Part shown: positions 42 to 6,218 of the stretch, in pieces
Position numbering within the stretch: position 1 is the stretch's first letter
How the letters are laid out: every line of letters starts with the position of its first letter
DNA from: a virus
Taxonomy: Duplodnaviria > Heunggongvirae > Uroviricota > Caudoviricetes
Virus record (IMG/VR): IMGVR_UViG_2558860274_000009
Span: 1-6,866 of that record
Length of the DNA: 6,866 bases
Strand: one strand, 5' to 3'
Translations under genes and position numbers: made by a program
The notes under the pieces: model-generated
What the model was told of the DNA's origin: nothing
Seen by the model: the letters and a program-made list of their open reading frames with translations, nothing else
The model's database searches: none

Positions 42-148
42 GAATTGAAAAGTCCAGGCTGCAAAGTCTGGGCTTTTGTTGTATTAAGGCGCGAGAAAAT
101 TTTGCATCGCCCGTAAAAAATGGCTGGCTTTACACAAGGAATGTGGCA

Positions 149-1846
149 ATGAGTGGTGAAAAAAGGGCGAAAGGCTGGCGGTTTTATGGTCTTGTAGGTT
201 TTGGCGCAATAGCACTGCTTTCCGCGGGTGTCTGGGCATTGCAATATGCTGGCAGTGGGCCAGAAAAAACGTTGTCGCCTCTGGTGGTGCACAACAATCT
301 GCAAATCGATCTCAATGAGCCGGACCTCTTTCTCGACAGCGATTCGTTAAGCCAGCTTCCCAAAGACCTCCTCACAATTCCTTTTCTGCGCGATGTTCTA
401 AGTGAAGATTTTGTTTTTTATTATCAGAACCATGCTGACCGTCTGGGGATTGAAGGTAGTATTCGGCGCATTGTGTATGAACATGATTTAACGCTGAAAG
501 ATAAGCTCTTTTCTTCATTGTTAGACCAGCCAGCGCAAGCGGCGCTGTGGCACGACAAACAAGGCCATCTCTCGCATTATATCGTGCTGATTCAACGCAG
601 TGGTTTGAGTAAGTTATTGGAGCCGTTACTGTTTGCCGCCACCAGCGACAGCCAGTTAAGTAAGACGGAGATCAGTAGCATTACGATTAATAATGAAACC
701 ATACCTGTTTATCAACTGCGCTATAACGGCAATAACTCACTGCTGTTTACCCGTTATCAGGACAAGATGCTGGTTTTTTCCAGCACAGATATGTTGTTTA
801 AAGGCGACCAGCAGGATACCGAAGCCACGGCGATCGCGAGTGATTTGTTGAGCGGGAAAAAACACTGGGAGGCCAGCTTTGGCCTGGAAGACCGTTTACA
901 ATCCTCCGCTGAAAAAACACTTGTTCGCCAGCGTATCGTGGTTAGCGCTAATTTGCTGGGTTTAGGTTACCAGCGGTTAATTCCTTCTTTTGCTGGCGTG
1001 CGCTTTGAAATGAGCAATGATGGCTGGCGCAGCTTTCTGGCGTTGAATGATGAATCCGCCAGTGTCGATGCCAGTTTTGATTTCACTCCGGTATGGCGCA
1101 GTATGCCTGCTGGTGCCAGCTTCTGCGTGGCGCTGCCTTATTCGCACGGTATTGCCGAAGAGATGCTCTCGCATATCAGCCAGGAAAACGACAAATTGAG
1201 CGGGATGTTGGACGGTGCTGCCGGGCTATGCTGGTATGAAGATTCCAGGTTGCAAACCCCCCTGTTTGTTGGCCAATTTGATGGCGCTGCCGAGCAAGCG
1301 CAACTGCCAGGGAAGCTGTTTACACAAACAATCGGGGCCCTCGAGAGCAAAGCACCTGAAGGTGTGTTGCCGGTAACGCAAACACAACAGGGCGACGCGC
1401 AAATCTGGCGGCGTGAAGTCAGCTCCCGTTATGGTCAGTATCCCGCAGCCCAGGCGGCGAAACCAGAACAACTGATGTCCGATTATTTTTTCCGCGTCTC
1501 GCTGGCGATGCAGAACAAGACGCTGATTTTCTCCCTTGACGACACGCTGGTCAATAACGCGCTGCAAACGCTGAACAAAACGCGCCCGGCAATGGTGGAT
1601 GTAATACCGGCTGATGGCGTCATTCCGGTCTATATCAATCCACAAGGGGTGGCAAAATTACTGCGTAATGAAACATTGGCCAGCTTGCCAAAAAACCTTG
1701 AGCCTGTTTTTTATAACGCAGCGCAGACTTTATTAATGCCGAAGCTGGACGCTTTATCGCAACAACCCCGTTATGCAATGAAACTGGTCAAGATGGAGCC
1801 CGGGGCTGCCTGGCAGTGGTTGCCTGTTAGCTGGCAACCATTATGA
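149..1846 (+). CDS. yfaA: YfaA-like protein (DUF2138 family), member of the yfaS alpha-2-macroglobulin operon
   Basis: Long ORF (track 143..1846, GTG at 143). ATG at 149 is preferred because AAGGA at 135-139 gives a 9-nt spacer. N-terminal hydrophobic segment [25 protein letters not shown] suggests a signal anchor. Protein recognised from memory as E. coli YfaA; gene order yfaA then yfaT matches the K-12 locus. Confidence 0.85.
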
Positions 1847-2469
1847 GGCGCGTGTTGTCGGCGCTGATTTGCTGGCTGTTTTGTTTTTTCGCCCATAGCG
1901 AAATGCTGGATGTCGAACAATCGGGACTATTTCGTGCCTGGTTTGTGCGCATTGCCCAGGAACAACTTCGTCAGGGGCCAAGCCCACGTTGGTATCAGCA
2001 GGATTGCGCGGGTCTGGTGCGCTTTGCGGCAAACGAGGCGTTGAAAGTTCATGACAGTAAATGGCTAAAAAATAACAGCATATCTAACCAATATCTGCCG
2101 CCGGAGATGGCGCTAACACCTGAACAGCGGCAATTGGCACAAAACTGGAGCCAGGGGAATGGGAAAACTGGCCCCTATGTGACCGCAATTAATTTGATTC
2201 AGTACAACAGCCATTTTATTGGCCAGGACATAAACCAGGCGTTGCCTGGCGATATGATTTTTTTCGATCAGGGCGATGACCAGCACTTAATGGTATGGAT
2301 GGGACGTTACATCATCTACCACACCGGAAGCGCCACAAAAACTGACAACGGAATGCGCGCAGTCAGTCTGCAACAACTTATGACATGGAAGTTGTATATT
2401 AAAAATTTCATTAATTATCAATATGTTAATGTGCGCTGGTCATTATTAATCAAAATAAAACCATTATGA
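1843..2469 (+). CDS. yfaT: YfaT-like protein (DUF1175 family); 3' end appears to be encoded by prophage arm DNA
   Basis: 208-codon ORF. ATG at 1843 overlaps the yfaA stop (ATGA), indicating translational coupling. N-terminus [19 protein letters not shown] looks like a signal peptide. Composition switches to AT-rich at about 2378, so the last ~28 codons lie in the phage attachment arm. Confidence 0.7.
2376..2463. other. attL: attL-like region: candidate core (about 2376-2390) plus phage P' arm with arm-type Int-binding-like motifs
   Basis: Region 2391-2446 aligns by eye with the lambda P' arm (lambda GTTGGCATTATAAAAAAGCATTGCTTATCAATTTGTTGCAACGAACAGGTCACTAT versus window gttgtatattaaaaatttcattaattatcaatatgttaatgtgcgctggtcattat). 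Arm-type-like GGTCATTAT and AACCATTAT precede the int stop, as in lambda. The 15 bp at the core position (acttatgacatggaa) differ from the lambda core. Sharp GC to AT switch at about 2378. Confidence 0.5.
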
Positions 2470-3534
2470 TATTTCAATTTTGTCCCACTCCCGCCCGCGA
2501 CTGTCCCTGTAACGCGCCGCCATTGAATCTGATTTATGCCCGAGAAGACGTTGAGCAAACTTATCGCCAATCTGATTCCGGTATAGCCTCGCCGACAGGC
2601 TGCGCAGTTCATGGAATGTTGGCGGGTCTCCATCAAATGAGAGTCCAGATGCATTTCTCGCCTTTGTAAAATACTTAGATACTGTTTTCGGGGAAAGCGG
2701 TTCGTGATGCGTTGATGCAATTATTGTTTCACTGCCGCTGGCCTCCCTGCATTTCTGTAGTGTATCAGCCAATGAGATATTGAGCGCGTCAATCGTTAGC
2801 GTCAGCGGAATGGCGAGCTTAGCCCCTGTTTTACCCTGCTCAATGTGAAGATGGTTGTCGTTTATGTCTGACCATTTCATTCTGCATAAATCGCCTACTC
2901 TCTGCCCTGTAACGACAGCCAAATCCATTGCCAGCCTCAGCCAGATTGGGAGCGGTTCGGCTGCATGGTAAATCGCGACATATTCATTAGCTGTCAGTCT
3001 TGAACGCCTTACTTCTGATTTTTCTGTGCGGGTTGCTGTTACCGGATTCGTAGCCACATGCCCCTCGGCTATTGCCTCACGAAAAACGTCAACAAGGGTT
3101 GACCTGATTAATTTTGCGGAAGCCGCTTTACCTTCTGCTACGTAGGTGTTTAGCATTGCTGCCACCTCTTTCGTTGATATGTCAGCGAGCGGTTTGTCCG
3201 GCAATTTTCTTCGGATTGCCCTGATTTTGCTGGCGTAGTCGAGTAGAGTTTTCGGCCTGATACCCCTCTCGCTGAGGATTGTTTCATATCGGTCAAGCCA
3301 CGCATGAAGAGTGATTGCGTCAGCGCCTTTAATTCTGTCTATCAGTGACTCACGCCTGTTCCCGGATAGCAACTCAATATTGGCCTGTATTGCTTCAGTG
3401 ATTGCTATCCTCCTGTCTCGGCCTAATCCGAACTCTTTACCCGTCCTTGGGTCCCTGTAGCAGTAATATCCATTGTTTCTTATATAAAGGTTAGGGGGTA
3501 AATCCCGGCGCTCATGACTTCGCCTTCTTCCCAT
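2464..3534 (-). CDS. int: Lambda-family tyrosine integrase
   Basis: 356 aa. First ~55 aa ([55 protein letters not shown]) match lambda Int arm-binding domain as recalled; the rest is diverged but retains the catalytic signature ([24 protein letters not shown] with the terminal Tyr) and the C-terminal REWDKIEI. Overlaps xis by 23 bp as in lambda. Confidence 0.95.
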
Positions 3535-3730
3535 TTCTGATCCTCTTCAAAAGGCTACTTGTTACTGGTCGATTTAAGTCAACCTTTACCGCTGATTCGT
3601 GGAACAGATACTCTCTTCCATCCTTAACCGGAGGAGGGAATATCCTGCATTCGCGCACCCATCGACGAACTGTTTCAAGGCTTCTTGGGCGTCGCTGGCG
3701 TGCATTCCACTCCTGAAGTGTCAAGTACAT
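3512..3730 (-). CDS. xis: Excisionase Xis (near-identical to phage lambda Xis)
   Basis: 72 aa, [70 protein letters not shown]; matches lambda Xis from memory except about 2 residues. Sits directly upstream of and overlapping int. Confidence 0.95.
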   Translation of the reverse strand: MYLTLQEWNARQRRPRSLETVRRWVRECRIFPPPVKDGREYLFHESAVKVDLNRPVTSSLLKRIRNGKKAKS

Positions 3731-3750
3731 CGCAAAGTCTCCGCAATTAC

Positions 3751-3776
3751 ACGCAAGAAAAGCCGCATTGATGCGG
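3751..3776 (-). terminator. Hairpin plus T-tract on the minus strand just upstream of xis
   Basis: Perfect 7-bp stem GCCGCAT / loop TG / ATGCGGC (3761-3776). On the minus strand it is followed by TTTTCTTG. Lambda has a hairpin at the equivalent position as recalled. Confidence 0.3.
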
Positions 3777-3953
3777 CAATGGTAGGTCTGGATATCTTGA
3801 GAAATGAACAGGCCTCATTGAGTGTGAGGCTGTGGTTAGTCCTTGCGTAGCTCGCTAATTCTTCTGTAAGTCTCTGGTGCTTTGTTTCCGTGTATCTTCA
3901 TTTCAGACTTCAACAGAGCGACGAGGGAATCCCATTCGTTGAGGATGCCTTTG

Positions 3954-4088
3954 AATAACCTGGTTGCCCAGGGCAATGTTCTGCCTGTTCTGTACGGTGA
4001 ACTGCGCGTGGGGTCACGTGTGGTCTCTCAGGAGATCAGCACGGCAGATGAAGGGGATGGTGGTCAGGTTGTGGTTATTGGTCGCTGA
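3954..4088 (+). pseudogene. I: 3' fragment (last ~45 codons) of tail assembly protein gene I
   Basis: Translation NNLVAQGNVLPVLYGELRVGSRVVSQEISTADEGDGGQVVVIGR* matches the C-terminus of lambda gpI as recalled. The upstream part of track ORF 3882..4088 (MFPCIFISDFNRATRESHSLRMPL) has no I-like character, so this is a truncated remnant. Confidence 0.65.
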
Positions 4089-4089
4089 T

Positions 4090-4115
4090 AATCACCGCCA
4101 GCTATGACGGTGATT
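4090..4115. terminator. Inverted repeat between the convergent I fragment and sodC (possible bidirectional terminator)
   Basis: AATCACCG (4090-4097) ... CGGTGATT (4108-4115), 8-bp stem with 10-nt loop, immediately after the I stop and 15 bp past the sodC stop. No strong T-tract. Confidence 0.3.
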
Positions 4116-4130
4116 GCTTTAGGCTGTTTG

Positions 4131-4652
4131 TTATTTAATTATTCCGCATGCCAGTCTTGCGCCCCCACCCCCCAGAGGAGCAGGTGAATCGGAATGATTA
4201 TCCCCTCCGGCATGAATCATGATCGCCCGTTCTTTTATCTGGCTTATTTTTTTTATTTTTGGACTCAGAACCGGGTTTTCTGCATTTCCTTCTGAGTTGA
4301 CATAGAGTGCTGGTAGATCACCCAGATGGCCCTCCGGATTGTACGGCCCAAGATGTTTATTTGTTTGTTCAGGATCATAATGCCCACCGGCAGCAAGAGC
4401 TGGCACTTTTTTTCCATTAATCAGACCGGGATCACAACTGGCATTTTCATGGATATGAAAGCCATGTAACCCTGGTGGCAGTTCTTTCAGATGAGGAGTG
4501 AACAGCAATCCGTAGCTGGTTTCTGAAATAGTTATTTCCCCTATATTTTTCCCTACTCCTTCTGAGGAAACGAGATTTACAGGGATCGTCATTGTATCAG
4601 CCATTACGGCTCCACTAAGTAGCGCAGTTACAGCAAGTATTTTTTTTATCAT
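4131..4652 (-). CDS. sodC: Periplasmic Cu,Zn superoxide dismutase, prophage-borne (moron)
   Basis: 173 aa. Signal peptide MIKKILAVTALLSGAVMA. Cu,Zn-SOD motifs HGFHIHE, GGHYDP, GHLGDLP, HAGGDNHSD and C-terminal GGGGARLACGIIK. Opposite orientation to the flanking tail genes. Confidence 0.9.
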   Translation of the reverse strand: MIKKILAVTALLSGAVMADTMTIPVNLVSSEGVGKNIGEITISETSYGLLFTPHLKELPPGLHGFHIHENASCDPGLINGKKVPALAAGGHYDPEQTNKHLGPYNPEGHLGDLPALYVNSEGNAENPVLSPKIKKISQIKERAIMIHAGGDNHSDSPAPLGGGGARLACGIIK

Positions 4653-4785
4653 AAATACCCCGTCATTTCGTGTTGTTAATCAAGGTGATTTAAGTTTTAA
4701 CAAATGAAATACAACAGATGCATTTTTGTTGCAAGCGGTCGTTATATGGTTCGCATAAAATTGATTACTGTTTCGGGAATTATCT

Positions 4786-5162
4786 ATGGGTAAAGGTGGC
4801 AGTAAGGGGCATACCCCGCGCGAAGCGAAGGACAACCTGAAATCATCCCAGATGCTGAGCGTGATAGACGCCATCAGTGAAGGGCCGATTGAAGGTCCGG
4901 TGGACGGATTAAAAAGTGTGCTGCTGAACAGTACGCCAGTGCTGGACAGTGAGGGGAATACCAATATCTCCGGTGTCACGGTGGTGTTCCGGGCAGGTGA
5001 GCAGGAGCAGACACCGCCGGAGGGATTTGAATCCTCCGGCTCCGAGACGGTGCTGGGTACGGAAGTGAAGTACGACACACCGATTACCCGGACCATCACG
5101 TCGGCAAACATCGACCGTCTGCGCTTTACCTTCGGTGTTCAGGCACTGGTGGAAACCGAATC
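4786..5162 (+). pseudogene. J: 5' fragment (~125 codons) of tail tip / host specificity gene J, joined out of frame to collagen-like sequence
   Basis: [124 protein letters not shown] matches the lambda gpJ N-terminus as recalled. After about 5162 the same frame gives Arg/Pro/Gly-rich out-of-frame text to a stop at 5361. Full J is about 1130 aa. Confidence 0.75.
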
Positions 5163-5168
5163 CCCACC

Positions 5169-5738
5169 GTGGAGGGACCTCCCGGGCCAAAGGGGGAACA
5201 GGGGCCCGCTGGCCCTCAGGGGCCGAAGGGTGATAAGGGAGAGCGTGGTGACACCGGTCCTGTCGGGGCAACCGGCGAACGGGGACCGAGAGGAGATACA
5301 GGTCCGGCAGGCCCGCAGGGGTCGAAAGGCGACAGGGGGGAACGGGGAGAGACCGGTCTGACGGGAAGTACAGGTCCACAGGGGCCAAAGGGAGATACTG
5401 GTGCAGCAGGCCCGGCAGGCCCACAGGGACCGAAAGGCGAAACAGGAGCGGCAGGTCCGGTGGGGGCTACCGGACCTCAGGGGCCGAAGGGAGACCCGGG
5501 CGAGACACAAATCCGTTTTCGTCTGGGGCCGATGAGCATTATTGAGACAAACAGCTATGGCTGGTTCCCGGATACAGATGGTGCGCTCATCACCGGACTG
5601 ACCTTTCTTGACCCCAAAGATGCCACACAGGTTCAGGGGATGTTTCAGCATTTGCAGGTCAGGTTTGGTGACGGGCCGTGGCAGGATGTTAAGGGGCTGG
5701 ATGAAGTGGGCAGTGATACAGGCAGAACAGGAGAATGA
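5169..5738 (+). CDS. Collagen-like phage tail fibre protein, 5'-truncated (collagen triple-helix repeats plus C-terminal globular domain)
   Basis: This frame is open from 5031 with no ATG; the track start is GTG at 5169 and has no Shine-Dalgarno. 36 uninterrupted Gly-X-Y triplets (5175-5498), then a non-repetitive C-terminal domain ([77 protein letters not shown]). Typical of collagen-like side tail fibre proteins of EHEC prophages. Probably a remnant rather than an expressed gene. Confidence 0.6.
5175..5504 (+). repeat. Collagen-like Gly-X-Y coding repeat (36 consecutive triplets), GC-rich
   Basis: Direct reading of frame 3: [108 protein letters not shown], then GE. Confidence 0.9.
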
Positions 5739-5739
5739 C

Positions 5740-6009
5740 ATGAATATACTAAAAAAACTTATGCAGTGTCTGTGTGGTTGCGGAAAGCATGATGGCCGTG
5801 AACACGTGCAGTCGCCTACAGCACAGCTGCGACTGGGACCGGCAGACATTCTGGAGTCCGATGAGAATGGCATTATCCCGGAGCAGGCCAGGGTAATCAC
5901 GCAGGTGGTGATACTGGATGCGGATAAAAAGCAGATACAGTGCGTGGTAAGACCGCTGCAAATTCTGCGTGCTGACGGGACGTGGGAAAATATTGGCTGG
6001 ATGAAGTAA
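5740..6009 (+). CDS. Hypothetical small protein (89 aa) coupled to the tail-fibre gene
   Basis: ATG at 5740 preceded by AGGAG (5727-5731) and starting 1 nt after the tail-fibre stop (TGA 5736-5738). Sequence MNILKKLMQCLCGCGKHDG... has a Cys-rich N-terminus. Followed by a strong terminator. Track ORF 5608..6009 is the same frame with an upstream ATG that lies inside the tail-fibre gene and has no RBS. Confidence 0.55.
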   Translation: MNILKKLMQCLCGCGKHDGREHVQSPTAQLRLGPADILESDENGIIPEQARVITQVVILDADKKQIQCVVRPLQILRADGTWENIGWMK

Positions 6010-6025
6010 CCCGACAGCTTCACAA

Positions 6026-6050
6026 AACCGGAGTCTGGCTCCGGTTTTTT
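6026..6050 (+). terminator. Rho-independent terminator after the 89-aa ORF
   Basis: AAAA / CCGGAG (6028-6033) - loop TCTGG - CTCCGG (6039-6044) followed by TTTTTT (6045-6050). Confidence 0.65.
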
Positions 6051-6072
6051 GTTGTCATGTCATGGTGATGTT

Positions 6073-6087
6073 TGTTAATGAAGTTAA
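6073..6087 (+). repeat. Direct repeat copy 1 (TGTTAATGAAGTTAA) upstream of nleG
   Basis: Exact 15-bp match to 6191-6205, 118 bp apart, in the AT-rich region upstream of the effector gene. Confidence 0.7.
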
Positions 6088-6190
6088 ATTTATTTTGGCT
6101 TGATAATGGAGTCTTATCTTTTGCAAGACTGATAATGGTGTGTGAAAGCATTGTGATAAGTAAGATGCTTCAACAGGAAATCAAGTAAAA

Positions 6191-6205
6191 TGTTAATGAA
6201 GTTAA
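6191..6205 (+). repeat. Direct repeat copy 2 (TGTTAATGAAGTTAA), immediately upstream of the nleG ribosome-binding site
   Basis: Exact 15-bp match to 6073-6087; ends 13 bp before the nleG ATG. Confidence 0.7.
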
Positions 6206-6218
6206 TGGGGGTTTTATT

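Follow-up and report, generated by a model that had tools for sequence, protein, structure and literature searches.

The tail region of a prophage remnant in Escherichia albertii very probably bears the scar of a microhomology deletion that left two pseudogene fragments, J′ and stf′, in a decayed lambdoid prophage. J′ is the 5′ end of the tail gene J and is read in frame 1; stf′ is the 3′ half of a collagen-like side tail fibre gene and is read in frame 3. Decay of this kind is ordinary and already documented in prophages, including the frame-broken copies of the collagen-like fibre gene EPclA in O157. The window, that is, the whole stretch of 6,866 nucleotides analysed here, is matched from end to end by CP007025.1 (6,866/6,866 nt, 100% identity), where it corresponds to 5216-12081 of the locus examined (L004). 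CP007025 is the chromosome of E. albertii KF1 (PMC3907721). The initial annotation had set the region in an EHEC host, which has to be replaced by E. albertii KF1; in agreement with this host, yfaA/DUF2138 and DUF1175/yfaT, the chromosomal genes on the left, share only ~91% identity with their E. coli counterparts. The features of the window are as follows.

143-1846, plus strand: yfaA (ORF and Pfam).
1843-2469, plus strand: DUF1175 (yfaT) (ORF and Pfam).
2377-2391, plus strand: candidate attL core CTTATGACATGGAAG inside DUF1175/yfaT (direct repeat).
2464-3534, minus strand: lambda-type integrase, the left end of the remnant (Pfam; colinear with E. coli prophages at the same site).
3512-3730, minus strand: excisionase (Pfam; colinear with E. 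coli prophages at the same site).
3955-4088, plus strand: I′, the last ~45 codons of the tail assembly gene I (comparison with intact prophages).
4131-4652, minus strand: sodC, an intact cargo gene (moron) between I and J (PF00080).
4786-5157, plus strand: J′ fragment, codons 1-124 (frame 1, homology to intact J).
5153-5157, plus strand: deletion joint 2, with the 5-nt microhomology AAACC (three-way alignment).
5154-5738, plus strand: stf′ fragment, codons 244-437 and the stop codon (frame 3, homology to the intact fibre gene).
5158-5361, plus strand: out-of-frame tail of the J′ ORF, 67 Arg/Gly/Pro-rich codons from collagen DNA (translation).
5175-5507, plus strand: complete collagen (Col) domain, 37 uninterrupted Gly-X-Y triplets, 111 aa (triplet count; PF01391, E=1.7e-19).
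5508-5735, plus strand: complete PfC (PF06820) C-terminal trimerisation domain (profile positions 1-64/64, E=1e-34).
5740-6009, plus strand: intact stand-alone PF06820 ORF, 89 aa (E=3e-33).
6024-6048, plus strand: intrinsic-terminator-like hairpin with a T run, ending the fibre operon (sequence scan).
6219-6866, plus strand: nleG, an intact T3SS effector gene (PF06416).

The remnant spans ~7.1 kb at yfaT/DUF1175 and is bounded by a direct repeat, the partner of the candidate attL core lying 7.07 kb downstream in KF1 and matching it at 14/15 positions. The same integration site is used by prophages of E. coli O26 and O103, with int and xis likewise at one end, and in the O26 prophage the matching attR position begins a partial DUF1175 fragment. 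Beyond the window, the KF1 chromosome continues with nleA and then attR. The only genes surviving in the remnant are int, xis, sodC, nleG, and nleA, while no head, tail morphogenesis, lysis, replication, or regulatory gene is left in the ORF list, the Pfam matches, or the genes of the KF1 locus. Lytic-cycle genes have been lost at two mapped joints, one at 3955-3956 and the other at 5153-5157. Downstream of the second joint, the 89-aa PF06820 ORF is 100% identical to the O26 copy and comes after stf in every intact prophage read, and nleG differs from its O26 counterpart at 1 of 645 nt. An Rfam scan of the window at the gathering threshold returned no match.

The J half of the joint is well defined. 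Positions 4786-5157 align without gaps to nt 1-372 of the intact J of an E. coli O103 prophage (98.4% DNA identity) and to J in nine intact E. albertii prophages (97.4-99.8%), and the alignment ends at 5157 each time. At the protein level, J′ aligns end to end with residues 1-124 of lambda J (8iyk_J, E=4e-73; 9e7m_Ja, E=3e-73), which bears out the J-like N-terminus originally described in frame 1, although its length is 124 codons rather than about 125. Unlike lambda J, J′ lacks the hub, Ig, and receptor-binding domains. Homology to the full J architecture (FNIII-A, Phage-tail_3 hub, Ig, tail-tip, and C-terminal receptor-binding domains) ends at codon 124, so that only 11% of a 1132-1159-aa protein is kept, and the FNIII-A domain (PF24801) is represented by profile positions 3-42 of 126, being cut after about a third. 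The J proteins of intact neighbours, by comparison, measure 1137-1159 aa and contain all domains. Past the joint, the frame-1 ORF runs through collagen DNA until it meets the stop codon at 5359-5361; public assemblies call the resulting 191-aa hybrid as a gene.

The other half belongs to the EPclA class, of which EHEC prophages carry many copies and whose 437-aa members are organised as PfN (PF08400), PCoil, Col (111 aa), and PfC (PF06820) (Ghosh et al., 2012, PLoS One 7:e37872, PMC3368898). From 5153 to 6866, the window is colinear and gap-free with the prophage of O26:H11 11368 from nt 729 of its fibre gene onward (437-aa gene, WP_000279018.1). Fibre codon 244 starts at 5154, placing the collagen-like coding in frame 3, as had been proposed. 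Homology covers fibre nt 729-1314; the Col-then-PfC order of EPclA is present in stf′, and residues 1-243, which comprise PfN and the Ala/Ser/Glu-rich coiled-coil PCoil, are absent. The Col domain is as long as that of intact 437-aa EPclA proteins, and the earlier reading of the collagen and C-terminal domains as intact holds for 37 of 37 triplets and all 64 positions of the PF06820 profile. As at EPclA loci, stf′ is followed by the 89-aa PF06820 ORF. Unlike EPclA, it has lost its native start, its ribosome-binding site, and its place in a late operon, lies out of frame behind J codon 124, and is found in E. albertii.

Comparison of both halves with intact relatives locates the joint to the nucleotide. 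At its flanks, J reads GTGGAAACC followed by ACC..., and the fibre gene reads GCCGTAAACC followed by GAATCC...; the two homology blocks overlap by AAACC at 5153-5157. The expected share of random joins with a microhomology of at least 5 nt is ~0.5%. In the nine intact E. albertii prophages, the left block (I, sodC, and the 5′ end of J) always stops at 5157 and the right block (the 3′ half of the fibre gene) always begins at 5153, and the same endpoints were obtained against L009-L019. The initial annotation had put the breakpoint at about 5160-5170, where J similarity was thought to end; alignment to intact lambdoid prophages, the check it had proposed, moves it to 5153-5157 and maps the endpoints to J nt 372 and fibre nt 729. 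Its central claims, a deletion joint and an out-of-frame fusion, are upheld: in the alignment, frame 1 belongs to J and frame 3 to the fibre gene, and both endpoints recur 3.8-4.6 kb apart in the nine intact prophages. Their spacing there is 3,831-3,836 nt in prophages that lack lom and 4,572 nt in those that have it, and the interval holds the rest of J, the optional lom, and the 5′ end of the fibre gene. Most of J and the 5′ part of the fibre gene are thus gone, as had been stated, whereas a lom-like gene may or may not have gone with them: protein-identical fibre alleles occur in lom-less prophages (L009, L014), but lom is present in the O26 prophage that occupies this att site.

Rather than a conserved architecture, the joint is a rare scar confined to a narrow lineage around KF1. 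A 76-nt string across it is identical in six assemblies, namely KF1, two drafts, two metagenome assemblies, and the closed genome CP117580.1 (L012). Between the last and KF1 there are only 8 SNPs in 18.4 kb, but CP117580.1 has in addition lost 1,442 bp (window 2514-3955), and with them int and xis. Because the joint is identical in CP117580.1 despite this additional deletion, it is inherited and not an assembly error. Among 5,426 complete E. coli genomes, no place covered both sides of the J-collagen joint with any of three queries (3700-6866, 3700-5200, and 5100-5215), and an exact 23-mer across it had no match in GTDB species representatives, JGI metagenome contigs, or IMG/VR viral contigs. 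No genome shows a related intact prophage with the same junction in one continuous frame.

An artefact, whether a single-base frameshift or repeated prophage sequence wrongly joined in the KF1 assembly, deserves consideration on technical grounds, given that KF1 was assembled partly from homopolymer-error-prone Ion Torrent and 454 reads (PMC3907721) and that the many paralogous lambdoid prophages of E. albertii could confuse assemblers. Such an origin is nevertheless extremely improbable. The six identical junctions come from independent assemblies of separate projects, one of them another closed genome whose local structure differs, and none restores a single frame. Moreover, the sides of the joint derive from genes 3.8-4.6 kb apart, so that correcting a single base cannot restore a natural gene.

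The first joint, at 3955-3956, connects DNA upstream of xis to I′. Positions 3731-3956 are 100% identical to E. coli O26/O111-type prophages, and this identity runs up to 3956. The region that follows is of a different kind: the int-xis and stf-nleG blocks match E. coli O26 prophages at 98-100%, while I-sodC-J is of the type seen in E. albertii. In the 5,426 complete E. coli genomes, nothing exceeds 68% identity to the sodC cassette that separates I from J, and a search of genome_contigs with a 23-mer taken between sodC and J gave 0 matches. Megablast of 3731-5738 against phage records recovered the fibre half only, with no deposited phage carrying I-sodC-J at that sensitivity. In contrast, an exact look-up of the SodC protein found ten places, nine of them intact lambdoid prophages, and the accessions of these places occur in E. 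albertii genome papers. Gene order in the nine is ...K, I, sodC, J, (lom), stf, PfC ORF, and effectors, and the intact prophages of L014 and L017 also end in nleG...nleA.

This mixed ancestry could also be explained by illegitimate recombination between two prophages or phage genomes, a splicing event that would set I-sodC-J of E. albertii type between O26-like int-xis and stf-nleG-nleA and end in the same two pseudogene fragments. The 1.2-kb I′-sodC-J′ block is indeed flanked on both sides by illegitimate joints, and its neighbours resemble E. coli O26-type prophages closely, with 2 differences in 1,127 nt (~99.8% identity) over 5740-6866 and, as noted, none over 3731-3956; the E. coli genomes, for their part, hold no close counterpart of the sodC cassette. 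However, I-sodC-J is already combined with stf, the PfC ORF, nleG, and nleA in L014 and L017, which makes a single prophage with all the retained genes a realistic parent. Since the combination already exists there, a mosaic parent and two simple deletions are sufficient, and the splicing event is unlikely. Mosaicism is the rule among lambdoid phages. The nearest comparison at the site itself is the O26:H11 11368 prophage at yfaT, which shares the integration site, the int-xis segment, and the order stf, PfC ORF, nleG, transposase fragment, nleA, and attR, continuing gap-free into yfaS. That prophage is larger and still has J, lom, and stf, whereas the KF1 copy has been cut to ~7.1 kb by two illegitimate deletions and, unlike it, contains the E. 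albertii-type sodC cassette between I and J.

Under the deletion reading, the ancestor would have been a lambdoid prophage in yfaT/DUF1175 whose tail end ran I, sodC, J, (lom), stf, the small PfC ORF, nleG, nleA, and attR. A RecA-independent, microhomology-mediated event probably then removed ~3.8 kb from a lom-less parent or ~4.6 kb from one with lom, joining J codon 124 to stf codon 243/244 at the common pentamer AAACC; slipped mispairing or illegitimate recombination is the mechanism that we infer. As the phases of J and stf differ, the J′ ORF would from then on read 67 nonsense codons before its stop, and the fibre fragment would have lost its start codon, its ribosome-binding site, the PfN attachment domain, and the coiled-coil. 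A separate deletion at 3955-3956 would have taken the whole stretch between a point upstream of xis and the 3′ end of gene I. From these data we also infer the order of the two deletions, a lack of expression of the fragments, and selection for the cargo genes: J′ and stf′ would be non-functional and would persist only through the retained cargo genes that flank them.

That neither piece is likely to yield a functional tail protein had been proposed from the outset, and the domain content is consistent with it: J′ breaks off within FNIII-A, and stf′ lacks its native start and PfN. The DNA of stf′ is nonetheless still protein-competent, because the equivalent Col-PfC fragment folds as a stable trimer in vitro. 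Both the Col-PfC proteolytic fragment of EPclA and PfC alone form stable trimers, the Col-PfC helix having a Tm of 42 °C, and PfC nucleates the triple helix (PMC3368898). The piece retained in stf′ corresponds to this characterised Col-PfC fragment. Frame 3 is open over 5031-5738 and contains an ORF of 189 aa from GTG 5169, the start suggested in the initial annotation for a truncated product. Such a product is possible insofar as Col-PfC is foldable, but no signal speaks for it: the codon is an internal Val in 11 of 11 intact alleles, its SD duplex is weak (-3.3 kcal/mol, compared with -7.4 for the PfC ORF and -9.1 for nleG), and consensus scans gave no promoter-like site. Specifically, no plus-strand sigma-70-like site was found in 3700-6300 by a simple consensus scan; like the SD comparison, also a simple scan, this is not proof of silence. 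Q and pR′, the late promoter system, are absent from the remnant. Fibre genes are normally driven by the late promoter with the Q antiterminator.

Synthesis of an active truncated protein, either Col-PfC from GTG 5169 or PfC alone from GTG 5460 or ATG 5532, which might for instance poison full-length fibres by co-trimerising with them, can be weighed against these observations. Besides the open frame and the stability of both trimers (PMC3368898), it may draw on the moderate SD duplex of GTG 5460 (-7.0 kcal/mol), on the ORFs that gene callers start at 5532 (68 aa) or 5460 when annotating public assemblies, and on the stand-alone PF06820 protein naturally encoded just downstream. It is still very unlikely, given the weak SD at 5169, the lack of a promoter-like site upstream, and the deletion of the late promoter and Q. 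The Met at 5532 is allelic, and the joint is confined to its narrow lineage. In addition, stf′ has two private replacements, V to E at 5172 and P to S at 5322, at residues otherwise invariant in 11 intact alleles. A co-opted role for a Col-PfC half translated from an internal start, as a dominant-negative factor acting on the side fibres of other prophages or as a trimeric collagen-like host-interaction protein, is highly improbable. Were it true, the full-length collagen-like fibres of other E. albertii lambdoid prophages could incorporate headless Col-PfC or PfC chains, since PfC nucleates trimerisation.

The two frames might alternatively be bridged by programmed -1 frameshifting in the 5031-5361 overlap, yielding a chimeric J-collagen tail protein. 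Frame 3 does stand in the -1 phase relative to frame 1, and read in the phase of frame 1 the overlap contains two formal X XXY YYZ heptamers, one at 5181 (C CCG GGC) and one at 5202 (G GGC CCG). Both are GC-only and an expected by-product of Gly-Pro codons, and to our knowledge GC-only heptamers are not among the efficient slippery sites of bacteria. The overlap thus offers neither an efficient slippery heptamer nor a conserved arrangement, the two-frame organisation being absent from all intact prophages examined and from the 5,426 E. coli genomes. No other tail gene is left as a partner, and J(1-124) cuts FNIII-A after a third. The probability of a frameshifted chimera is accordingly close to nil, and a deletion scar with two pseudogene fragments remains the preferred reading.

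The sequence of stf′ itself has changed little. The nearest intact allele among complete E. coli genomes (L009) is 99.0% identical in DNA, with 6 nt differences, 4 synonymous and 2 nonsynonymous, and no internal stop or frameshift occurs in stf′. Decay since the deletion is therefore minimal, which counts against the pseudogene reading. Relative to the O26 allele, the dN/dS of stf′ is 0.19; this value was rejected as a measure of present-day constraint, the differences being inherited allelic variation, given that a 99%-identical intact allele exists. ATG 5532 was likewise considered as a start newly created in the remnant and rejected, as Met is found there in 8 of 11 intact alleles, an ordinary allelic variant. 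Frame-broken EPclA copies (EPclA*) are also listed for O157 prophages (PMC3368898, Table 2).

Taken as a precisely mapped case of stepwise decay, the locus illustrates how short-microhomology deletions may strip a prophage of structural genes and leave its cargo (sodC, nleG, and nleA) intact, with KF1 and CP117580.1 representing two successive stages. The joint also offers a possible marker for the KF1-like lineage of E. albertii. For annotation, the 191-aa 'J-like' ORF and the 68- and 92-aa 'fibre C-terminal' ORFs should be flagged as pseudogene fragments.

Among the retained genes, the SodC protein has its best solved matches in chains 6d52 and 1eqw (E ~1e-67), which we take to be Salmonella SodCI of prophage Gifsy-2. 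The sodC of the remnant is predicted to encode a phage-borne periplasmic Cu,Zn superoxide dismutase of this kind and is placed on the reverse strand as cargo among tail genes. It is a context gene that lies outside the J/fibre joint.

The prophage remnant spans approximately 7.1 kb in full (window 2377-6866 and 7592-14680 of the Escherichia albertii KF1 region) and retains only int, xis, and three cargo/virulence genes, sodC, nleG, and nleA, all of which seem intact. Both deletions, the joint at 3955-3956 that links DNA upstream of xis to the 3' end of tail gene I (I') and the joint at 5153-5157 between the J fragment (J') and the collagen-like fibre fragment, end no more than a few hundred bases from sodC. 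Such a pattern would fit selection for cargo genes while structural genes were purged. Two features of the remnant and its boundary are:

Window 1843-2469, DUF1175/yfaT ORF (Pfam MagC), spanning the candidate attL core at 2377-2391
Window 4089-4785, sodC cargo cassette between tail genes I and J, with sodC at 4131-4652 on the minus strand

SodC is a protein of 173 amino acids, and an exact-protein look-up found the identical protein in 337 index blocks. Nine of the ten places read were intact E. albertii lambdoid prophages. No match to the cassette above 68% identity was found among complete E. coli genomes, and at megablast sensitivity the I'-sodC-J' block had no match in deposited phage records. 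The nearest solved structures to SodC are the Cu,Zn superoxide dismutase chains 6d52 and 1eqw, which are chains of Salmonella SodCI of Gifsy-2.

The fibre C-terminus carries a PF06820 trimerisation domain (5508-5735), which is followed in tandem by a second copy in a separate ORF of 89 amino acids (5740-6009) beginning 2 nt past the fibre stop codon. This pair is kept in all intact prophages examined. In the intact fibre alleles of two E. albertii prophages (L016 and L017), the collagen domain has lost 21 and 36 residues in frame, corresponding to 7 and 12 Gly-X-Y triplets, which illustrates slippage-driven variation in repeat length. Slippage-type length variation and the larger out-of-frame deletion at 5153-5157 have affected one and the same fibre gene.

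Between window 5153-6866 and the prophage of E. coli O26:H11 there are 36 differences, 34 of which lie within the collagen/PF06820 fragment. Only 2 of 1,127 nt differ across the 89-residue PF06820 ORF, the intergenic region, and nleG, so that the E. albertii remnant is ∼99.8% identical to the E. coli prophage over this stretch, whereas the flanking chromosome is just ∼91% identical. This disparity indicates recent phage exchange between the species, together with allele shuffling inside the collagen repeats.

Since the DUF1175/yfaT ORF crosses the candidate attL core, its final ∼26 codons come from prophage DNA. The ORF and the 3' end of int share 6 nt. The original 3' end of the gene, now displaced, is found at attR in both KF1 and O26.

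A sister strain of KF1 (CP117580.1) displays an additional deletion of 1,442 bp, corresponding to window 2514-3955, through which int and xis were lost. Its joint (window 2510-2513/3956-3959) lies at a TAAC microhomology. The right end falls 0-4 nt from the older xis-upstream/I' joint of KF1, for which the chance of a random endpoint so near is roughly estimated at 2-3%, and immediately adjoins the inverted repeat CCTGGttgcCCAGG (window 3959-3972). The region around this joint and repeat may constitute a local deletion hot spot.
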